Source: a virus
Lineage: Duplodnaviria; Heunggongvirae; Uroviricota; Caudoviricetes
Length of the DNA: 11,186 nt
Strand: one strand, 5' to 3'
Virus record (IMG/VR): IMGVR_UViG_2671180603_000013
Coordinates: 1 to 11,186 of that record
Under the pieces are notes generated by a model that saw only the letters and a program-made list of their open reading frames with translations, was not told the DNA's origin and searched no databases. This document shows, piece by piece, positions 3,333 to 4,248 of the stretch. The stretch's first letter is position 1, and every line of letters starts with the position of its first letter. The translations under genes were made by a program, and so were the position numbers.

Positions 3333-4183
3333 AACTGGAAGATTTACCGAAATACTACTCCCCAAAATCCCCTTGCCTGACCGATGCATCGGCCTCAACG
3401 TCAAAAGATGCGCTGAGTATCACTGATGTGATGGCCGCGCAGGGCATGACACAGAATCGGGCTGAGATGGGGTTTTCTGCGTTCCTGGGGAAAATGGGCA
3501 TCAGTATGAATGACAGGGCGCGGGCAACAGAATTACTGGCAGATTATGCACTCAGTCGGTGCGATCGTGTGGCGGCGTTGAGAAAACTTCCGGCAGAAAT
3601 AAAACCGGTAGTGATGCGCATTATGGCTTCGTACGCTTTTGAGGATTATGCCCGCAGCGCAGCGAGTAAAAAGCAGTGCCCTTGTTGCTATGGGGAAAAA
3701 TTTATTGAAAGCGTAGTTTTTACAAACAAGGTCCAGTATCCGGATGGTAAGCCGCCGGTATGGGCAAAGTGTACGAAAGGTGTGTATCCGTCTTACTGGG
3801 AAGAATGGAAAAAAGTCAGAGAGGTGGTAAAAGTTGCCTGTCCGGAGTGTGGCGGAAAGGGTGAGGTTTCCACCGCCTGTAAGGATTGCCGTGGGCGTGG
3901 TGTCGCCATTCATCGTGAAGAGTCGGTAAAACGTGGTATGCCTGTTATCAGAGACTGCCAGCGTTGTGGTGGTCGTGGCTATGAAAGACTACCATCAACG
4001 GAGGCATTTAATGCTATATGCGAGGTGACAAACCAGATAACACGCGCGTCATGGGAAAAAACAGTTAAGAAATTTTATGATGCGCTGGTGACCCGGTTTG
4101 ATATTGAAGAAGCATGGGCTGAGCGGCAGTTAAAAAAGGTAACTAGGTTGATTTTTCCGGAATCTGTGGTAAATTCGTCATAA
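3329..4183 (+). CDS. putative late-gene antiterminator Q (lambdoid Q-like, zinc-ribbon type)
   Basis: 284 aa. Canonical position immediately after rusA and before a promoter/terminator pair and the late region. Several CxxC pairs (CPCC, CPECGGKG, CKDCRGRG, CQRCGGRG). Family assignment is by synteny and recall, not by search. Confidence 0.65.
   Translation: MKLEDLPKYYSPKSPCLTDASASTSKDALSITDVMAAQGMTQNRAEMGFSAFLGKMGISMNDRARATELLADYALSRCDRVAALRKLPAEIKPVVMRIMASYAFEDYARSAASKKQCPCCYGEKFIESVVFTNKVQYPDGKPPVWAKCTKGVYPSYWEEWKKVREVVKVACPECGGKGEVSTACKDCRGRGVAIHREESVKRGMPVIRDCQRCGGRGYERLPSTEAFNAICEVTNQITRASWEKTVKKFYDALVTRFDIEEAWAERQLKKVTRLIFPESVVNSS
4148..4175 (+). promoter_or_regulatory. pR'-like late promoter candidate overlapping the 3' end of Q
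   Basis: TTGATT (4148-4153), 16 bp spacer, TAAATT (4170-4175). Predicted start near the Q stop codon, about 65 nt before the terminator at 4223-4248. The TAAATT -10 matches my recollection of lambda pR'. Confidence 0.4.
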
Positions 4184-4222
4184 CTATGGGCGTTTTATGC
4201 CTGACGTTAGAAGAGTTTCTAC

Positions 4223-4248
4223 AACCCGCCGCCGAGCGGGTTTTTTAT
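4223..4248 (+). terminator. intrinsic terminator (tR'-like) downstream of Q
   Basis: 7 bp stem AACCCGC/GCGGGTT with 6 nt loop, followed by a T-run (TTTTTTATTG). Confidence 0.6.

Follow-up and report, generated by a model that had tools for sequence, protein, structure and literature searches.

The antitermination cassette of the Q type is defined as the Q gene, PR', the SDPE, a terminator and the late genes (PMC9388147). In phage lambda, the hexamer AACGAT is a -10-like, sigma-70-dependent pause element, and the GGG at +7-9 is discriminator-like (PMC5001585, PMC9388147). The C-terminal residues 195-207 of Q-lambda refold on loading and contact the flap-tip helix of RNA polymerase, and L202 and T206 are required for antitermination (PMC9388147). 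StxS, an RNA of Stx phages that regulates rpoS/stx1B, has proven Hfq binding and targets (PMC7547250).

Lambda pR' reads TAAATT-tgactc-AACGAT-GGG. An equal -10 and an equal 6-nt gap, followed by AACTAT-GGG, were found in the DNA analyzed here, a stretch of 11,186 nt from an IMG/VR virus record (IMGVR_UViG_2671180603_000013), hereafter the window. Judged from its sequence, the locus is very probably the late-gene switch of a lambdoid prophage, organized as a regulatory cassette of the Q-lambda family. Its features, all on the plus strand, are as follows.

3329-4183, plus strand: Q antiterminator gene, lambda-Q family, 284 aa
4138-4145, plus strand: 8-bp unit GGTAACTA, single copy (locus comparison)
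4148-4153, plus strand: -35 TTGATT of the late promoter, pR' equivalent (sequence reading)
4154-4169, plus strand: 16-bp spacer TTTCCGGAATCTGTGG, presumed position of the Q-binding element (sequence reading)
4170-4175, plus strand: -10 TAAATT, the same hexamer as the lambda pR' -10
4182-4190, plus strand: predicted +1 (A4182) and pause element AACTAT-GGG (lambda geometry, conservation)
4182-4208, plus strand: 5' stem-loop region of the RNA (RNAfold and family covariation)
4223-4246, plus strand: intrinsic terminator, tR' equivalent (7-bp stem, 6-nt loop, T6 run)
4248-4276, plus strand: promoter-like TTGCGG-17-TATTAT, conserved upstream of tRNA genes
4286-4538, plus strand: tRNA cluster 1, two tRNAs
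4286-4361, plus strand: tRNA with CAT anticodon, annotated as tRNA-Ile in relatives
4462-4538, plus strand: tRNA-Arg(TCT) of cluster 1
8509-10362, plus strand: SASA-type esterase (family search)
10435-10728, plus strand: holin, 6.2 kb downstream of the cassette

The ORF at 3329-4183 matches Pfam PF03589 in a protein-family search (E=7e-55) and carries the PHROG label 'anti-termination protein Q-like'. Its product matches the Q-lambda of PDB 7UBM (E=1.8e-40), aligned in two blocks around an insertion of about 68 aa (residues 114-181) that holds extra CxxC motifs. In the protein alignment, Q ends in ...VTR in all relatives, lambda included. The Q of the window has a C-terminal extension of 11 residues, LIFPESVVNSS, which is specific to its allele, and the remainder of the 284-aa protein is intact.

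The two lengths of Q differ in an 8-bp unit with the consensus GGTAACWA, found just 5' of the -35. Most loci possess two copies of the unit, the window and four to five loci only one, and L059 three. The TAA at which Q normally stops comes from the second copy and precedes the -35 by 8 bp; Q of the two-copy alleles ends in ...KVTR, exactly like lambda Q. With a single copy the normal stop is lost and Q reads 11 further codons through the promoter, so that the allele encodes 284 instead of 273 aa. An earlier reading of the DNA, made from the sequence only, had described the promoter as overlapping the last codons of Q. This is true of the window, where the last 12 codons are overlapped because the ORF runs to the TAA at 4181-4183, but it is not a general feature, as the long Q is present in only five of the 80 close relatives from IMG/VR. 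Several independent contigs share the long allele, as does one complete genome that is 97.9% identical over the region. Its extension comes after the residues equivalent to lambda L202 and T206 and could matter for Q function; since the 11 extra residues are placed behind a functionally required C-terminus, the 284-aa Q may be weakened or inactive.

The sequence-only reading placed TTGATT-16 bp-TAAATT correctly (4148-4175). The spacer ends with TG at 4167-4168, which makes the -10 an extended one (TGgTAAATT), and at the sequence level a sigma-70 promoter is thereby located directly 3' of Q. The promoter hexamers alone match the consensus at 8 of 12 positions, which is chance level; at the scan threshold of 9/12, six sites were counted in the real sequence against 6.4 expected from shuffles. 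The pattern TAnnnT-6 nt-AAnnATGGG, in contrast, has a single occurrence in the 11-kb window, at 4170-4190, where 0.01 is expected, and the composite motif with TTG-16-TGn added has one match in the window and none in 200 shuffles. It is the composite signature of promoter and pause element, not the hexamers, that exceeds chance. The pause element AACTAT-GGG, which had gone unmentioned in the earlier account, is decisive for the site. It starts six bases after the -10, with the -10-like AACTAT as +1 to +6 and GGG as +7 to +9, and the predicted +1, A4182, coincides with the second base of the TAA stop of Q.

The family consensus of the pause hexamer is AACGAT, from which the AACTAT of the window departs. 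Among 82 close relatives, A2, A5, T6 and GGG are kept while positions 3 and 4 of the hexamer vary, and the sigma-contacting A2 and T6 as well as the GGG display no variation at all. The haplotypes are AACGAT (39 relatives), AATGAT (22), AACTAT (7) and AACAAT (6), followed by the rarer AAAGAT (5), AATAAT (2) and GATGAT (1). Within the 102 nt that run from -35 to terminator, no columns other than positions 3 and 4 (4184 and 4185) are tri-allelic in these relatives, and the last 240 nt of Q contain no such column in the close relatives. The spacer is the presumed position of the Q-binding element, which in lambda pR' lies in the promoter spacer. In the window's clade it is nearly invariant, and Q homologues of 50-58% identity retain the motif TTTTCCSGAAWCTGTGG; other Q subfamilies carry other spacer sequences in its place.

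The close set, composed of 80 IMG/VR loci with Q 96-100% identical plus phage mEp460_ev081, keeps the whole stretch from promoter to terminator almost unchanged. In distant relatives from E. coli and E. albertii, the last 60 nt or so of Q differ at many positions, whereas the promoter, the pause element and roughly 33 bases from the start of the transcript hardly vary; the -35 TTGATT is invariant in the E. coli relatives with a diverged Q 3' end. Variation of the terminator among relatives falls in the loop or consists of compensated stem changes. A scan with one genome per species found Q homologues at 28-58% identity in Enterobacter, Erwinia, Pectobacterium, Providencia, Xenorhabdus, Edwardsiella, Sodalis and other genera. 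The AACGATGGG sequence is present after Q homologues across genera, and in 37 of the 39 homologues examined in the scan Q is followed by a promoter, six or seven bases, an element of this type and a terminator. Two further IMG/VR sets, with lambda-like and Providencia-like Q, show the same order. Altogether the promoter-pause-terminator layout follows about 50 Q homologues of 28-100% identity in many genera of the Enterobacterales, with predicted transcripts mostly of 54-71 nt, among which the 194 nt of lambda are an outlier. Mosaic breakpoints between relatives fall directly after the T-run of the terminator, which indicates that Q is exchanged as a unit with the promoter and the terminator. 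A region of 191 bp was matched in 2421 of 5426 complete genomes.

The terminator stem AACCCGC/GCGGGTT is formed by 4223-4229 and 4236-4242, with the T-run at 4241-4246. The sequence-only reading had put a terminator about 45 nt past the Q stop; the hairpin found there begins 40 nt past it. The same reading proposed a pR'/tR' cassette that is antiterminated by Q and gives a 6S-like RNA of about 65 nt without it. The Q family, the lambda geometry and the conservation all support such an arrangement, and the RNA predicted from A4182 to the terminator is 63-66 nt long. As folded by RNAfold, this RNA has a layout like that of an sRNA, with a 5' stem-loop, an A/U-rich linker and a terminator with U-run. 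No Rfam family reached threshold over 4143-4249. Three families were considered for the short RNA and rejected: Trp_leader (25.7 bits against a threshold of 41), isrK (RF01394; 15 bits against a gathering score of 50) and P9 (below threshold), with the terminator hairpin carrying the match in each case. An ORF of 45 codons at 4186-4323 was also dismissed as a gene; it starts inside the pause element, crosses the terminator into the tRNA and comprises two codons in lambda. Scanning the window for duplexes with the short RNA yielded long, non-specific pairings, which were uninformative. A literature search by the module's own sequence found no paper, the Cappable-seq supplementary data contained no start-site match for the module, and a study of Stx-phage pR' regions (PMC6266700) held no element-level information for the window's Q type.

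The leaders of the Q-lambda family, those of the window's clade included, are possibly selected to form a hairpin that starts at +1 of the RNA, a proposal that we advance tentatively. Family-wide, the RNA copy of the pause hexamer (four to six bases from +1) has a complementary segment further on that ends at +20 to +33. A GGG/CC inner stem and this closing helix together make up the 5'-terminal hairpin, for which the consensus pairing, lambda included, is AACGA/UCGUU. Inner stem GGGCGU/AUGCCU of the window is formed by 4188-4193 and 4197-4202. The closing helix is AACG/CGUU in relatives, of which the window keeps only AAC/GUU (4182-4184/4206-4208). In loci with another hexamer the partner is altered to match, with the following pairings.

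AAUGA/UCAUU: L139; L106/L237; L253
AAUG/CAUU: L241
AACAA/UUGUU: L103, L275
AACAG/CUGUU: L276
AAGAAU/AUUCUU: L226, L232
AACA/UGUU: L273

Loci L259-L265 have a re-registered GUGAG/CUCAC pairing. MAFFT on the first 34 nt gave an ungapped, structure-blind alignment, and a two-arm alignment was therefore used. It reveals CG 16, UA 4, UG 3 and GC 1 at pair 3, and GC 14, AU 6 and GU 2 with two unpaired at pair 4. In this alignment, which leans towards structure as it was fitted by the best partner register, 13 double-sided changes were counted against 4.6±1.6 in shuffles, and none of 500 shuffles was as high. Per-sequence shuffles of the 5-bp helix were individually not significant. Of 12 full leaders folded, six include the closing helix in their minimum-energy structure (the AACGAT allele of E. 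coli, lambda, K-12 Qin, L226, L106 and L139); the other six, L103, L273, L275, L241, L259 and the window, whose AACUAU breaks pair 4, do not. Because the partner lies at varying distances and G-U pairs are tolerated, an RNA helix is favored over a spacing signal in the DNA. The hairpin could shield both the short and the long late transcripts at their 5' end. Alternatively, it could serve as a stopper and hold the threaded RNA in the Q nozzle; re-threading of the RNA would be hard 'especially after RNA folding' (PMC9388147). The hairpin is unmentioned in the papers on the lambda pause and Q structures that were consulted here.

The cassette is followed by two tRNAs, two small phage ORFs (one encoded on the minus strand), an STnc100 element, a DNA methylase, three further tRNAs, two further STnc100 elements, the SASA-type esterase and the holin. 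Late (lysis/morphogenesis) genes, the holin and the SASA-type esterase, thus follow the cassette on its own strand. Mosaic duplications are seen in the region, namely two rusA genes and two tRNA clusters. From 4182 to the holin, terminator-like hairpins on the plus strand are unusually frequent. Between 6900 and 8600, 12 terminator-like hairpins were found on both strands where 2.1 are expected; ten of them are on the plus strand, which fits a region read only by termination-resistant polymerase. The sequence-only reading made the tRNA cluster, like everything downstream, dependent on Q. This is doubtful, since a conserved TTGnnG-17-TATTAT lies directly upstream of both tRNA clusters (for the second at 7246-7274, 9/12) and of ileZ2 in Sakai Sp5. 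In the window, the -35 of TTGCGG-17-TATTAT abuts the T-run of tR', and 9 nt separate its -10 from the first tRNA (4286). In Sp5, a dRNA-seq start site appears to drive the tRNAs (PMC7547250). The tRNAs are probably not dependent on Q alone.

The elements suggest the following mode of action. The sigma-70 RNA polymerase of the host would use TTGATT-16-TGgTAAATT as a constitutive promoter, with the start at about A4182. Sigma region 2 would then re-bind AACTAT-GGG on the non-template strand, in the first nine transcribed bases, with the paused complex sitting about 16-17 nt downstream. Without Q, the polymerase would escape the pause, terminate at 4223-4246 and release an RNA of about 63-66 nt. 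With Q present, the promoter spacer would be bound and Q would load onto the paused complex, and the Q-loaded polymerase would read through 4223-4246 and many later terminators into the lysis genes, with the holin at 10435. Most likely, the short RNA arises as a by-product of this switch.

Other explanations of the locus were weighed. The hairpin might be a mere terminator of the early operon behind Q, next to which promoter-like hexamers occur by chance. Hexamers matching at 8/12 are indeed equally common in shuffled sequence, and the hairpin would also stop transcripts from upstream. The composite signature, with its expectation of 0.01, does not conform to a chance match, nor do two further observations: the geometry of lambda is retained exactly behind Q homologues as low as 28% in identity, and in diverged relatives the promoter region varies less than the Q coding sequence beside it. 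We therefore hold this explanation to be highly improbable. It is also unlikely, though less so, that the cassette is a decayed remnant, in which the loss of 8 bp and the change to AACTAT left Q and/or the pause site nonfunctional, so that only the short RNA is made and the late genes are silent. The 11-residue extension behind the L202 and T206 equivalents, the minority status of the long allele (5/80), an AACTAT present in 7 of 82 close relatives and disruptive to pair 4 of the 5' helix, and the mosaic duplications with two rusA genes and two tRNA clusters would all agree with decay. However, the key pause bases A2, T6 and GGG are intact, as is the rest of Q, and the allele recurs in independent contigs and one complete genome.

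Unlikely, too, is a short pR'-tR' RNA that has been selected as a trans-acting, Hfq-dependent regulator like StxS. StxS itself is a precedent, and its authors propose antiterminated promoters as a source of sRNAs (PMC7547250). The sRNA-like layout, a body from +10 to +33 that is nearly invariant in diverged E. coli relatives and a covarying 5'-terminal hairpin that could stabilize the RNA point in the same direction. The relation to StxS is, however, limited to a hairpin-like stretch of 24 nt, no Rfam family was reached, and the linker sequence is unconserved between subfamilies. A role of the short RNA as a regulatory sRNA is speculative, and a Q-controlled late switch remains the preferred reading of the locus.

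Read as such a switch, the cassette locates the point of late-gene control in a very common prophage module of E. coli, and its position tells where late transcription, and hence lysis and any cargo of the late region, is gated. The usual leader of the Q-lambda family would be an RNA of 54-71 nt, which makes the 194-nt 6S RNA of lambda atypical. The covarying 5' hairpin and the natural C-terminal variant of Q are the parts that merit experiment.

A homologous module is found in the cryptic prophage Qin of K-12, where ydfT (quuQ) encodes a Q of the Q-lambda family with 250 aa and 41% identity to that of the window. The layout is the same, with promoter, AACGATGGG, 5' hairpin and terminator, while the spacer and the RNA body differ and no tRNAs follow the module. 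Term-seq recorded an 'orphan' 3' end at 1,642,356(-) in at least two of three growth conditions (PMC7815308, supplementary file 1). The flanking sequence printed for this end is the terminator of the Qin module; the end is located four bases past the T-run and 67 nt from the predicted start, which implies an RNA of about 67 nt in vivo.

The sequence-only reading named phages 82, 21 and 933W for comparison. Their late promoters share the logic of promoter, sigma-dependent pause, Q loading and nearby terminator, but they go with the unrelated Q82 and Q21 families (PF06323, PF06530), with other pause positions and other arrangements of the Q-binding site (PMC9388147, PMC5001585). Lambda is the right comparator. 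The same reading had pointed to a class of regulatory RNAs from Stx phages. Such an RNA exists in StxS (EcOnc15; Stx1/Stx2a phages), also made between pR' and tR' during lysogeny, but it accompanies another Q family, of 144 aa, and is cut by RNase E to 74 nt from a precursor of 258 nt (PMC7547250). The hairpin-like stretch of 24 nt is all that it has in common with the RNA of the window (87.5%).

The window shares with the lambda pR'-qut-6S RNA-tR' region a PF03589 Q, the -10 TAAATT, the 6-nt gap, a pause hexamer with GGG at +7 to +9, and an intrinsic terminator before the late genes. The predicted RNA is about 65 nt long against 194 nt for lambda 6S, and in the RNA bodies only +1 to +9 and the CGUU partner align. 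The -35 follows Q after 8 bp in the clade, 0 bp in the window and about 45 bp in lambda. The insertion of about 68 aa with extra zinc-binding motifs belongs to the Q of the window and is absent from lambda Q. The 16-bp spacer, with its extended -10, is unlike that of lambda in sequence, which implies a different Q specificity. With these differences, it is well supported that the cassette is typical of the Q-lambda family and a further example of a textbook system.

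Tri-allelic columns of the late-promoter module were found only at 4184-4185 (+), the third and fourth positions of the sigma-dependent pause hexamer AACTAT (4182-4187), among 82 near-identical relatives, in which seven haplotypes of this hexamer occur. The variability of these two positions may come from a mutational hot spot in the constitutively open, paused bubble, or alternatively from selection on pause strength; both explanations are possible. The 3' end of Q, the lambda-Q family antiterminator gene just upstream, carries an 8-bp unit, GGTAACWA (window 4138-4147, +), in one, two or three copies. 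The window allele has a single copy, by which the usual Q stop is lost and the protein is extended by 11 residues.

Residues 114-181 of Q (window 3668-3871) form an insertion of about 68 residues relative to lambda Q, located where the zinc-ribbon 'arm' begins and bringing two extra Cys motifs, CPCC and CPECGGKG. The arm possesses four Cys motifs in total, three of them DnaJ-like CxxCxGxG, and it is therefore suggested that the insertion provides a second zinc site and a larger DNA/sigma-contacting arm. A match of PF00684 to the arm is weak and under the Pfam threshold.

The gene content upstream of Q includes the following.

590-1648, DUF968 gene, upstream of the first RusA-family gene
1649-2029, + strand, first RusA-family resolvase gene
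2958-3332, + strand, second RusA-family resolvase gene

The presence of two RusA-family genes inside 1.3 kb, together with the two tRNA clusters, points to a mosaic or duplicated nin-region. A promoter-like TTGnnG-17-TATTAT is conserved at three sites, which lie immediately 5' of the two tRNA clusters and, in Sakai Sp5 (L156), of ileZ2.

4248-4276, + strand, promoter-like site of tRNA cluster 1
7246-7274, + strand, promoter-like site of tRNA cluster 2
L156 ~1329-1357, promoter-like site of Sakai Sp5 ileZ2

The -35 of the site at 4248-4276 directly adjoins the T-run of tR', the terminator 3' of Q. Further downstream, 12 terminator-like hairpins on both strands were counted in 6900-8600, versus 2.1 expected from shuffles; ten of them are on the + strand, from the second tRNA cluster to the esterase gene.

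Three copies of the sRNA family STnc100 (RF02076) were identified with Rfam (gathering score 47).

5235-5424, + strand, copy 1, 132 bits
7610-7799, + strand, copy 2, 124 bits
8077-8286, + strand, copy 3, 161 bits

All three end at the 3' side in a CCCCTCTCCGGAGGGG-type hairpin and are preceded by the common motif CACAATTCAG-N-3/4-TTGAC(A/T)GTTG. PasD prophage sRNAs, which neighbour PF03589 Q genes, were tied to STnc100 in a 2026 preprint.

In the K-12 Qin prophage, an unannotated pR'-type RNA of ~67 nt, counted from its predicted start, lies 3' of ydfT, the Q-lambda-family gene, and its 3' end is an 'orphan' end in published Term-seq tables.

L278 10358-10423 (NC_000913.3 1,642,356-1,642,422), - strand, Qin pR'-type RNA

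The Sakai Sp5 hairpin AACCCGCCGATGCGCGGGTTTTTTT (L156 970-993) displays 87.5% identity to the tR' hairpin of the window; it is located shortly 3' of the Sp5 Q gene, within the published 258-nt StxS precursor region, and itself looks like a terminator. Loci with more distant Q homologues (43-58% identity; L088-L094 and L273-L277) possess an extra inverted repeat, ATAGCTCAC...GTGAGCTAT, about 10-40 nt 5' of the -35 and terminating at the late-promoter -35 TTTACT, whereas a repeat of this type is absent from the window.
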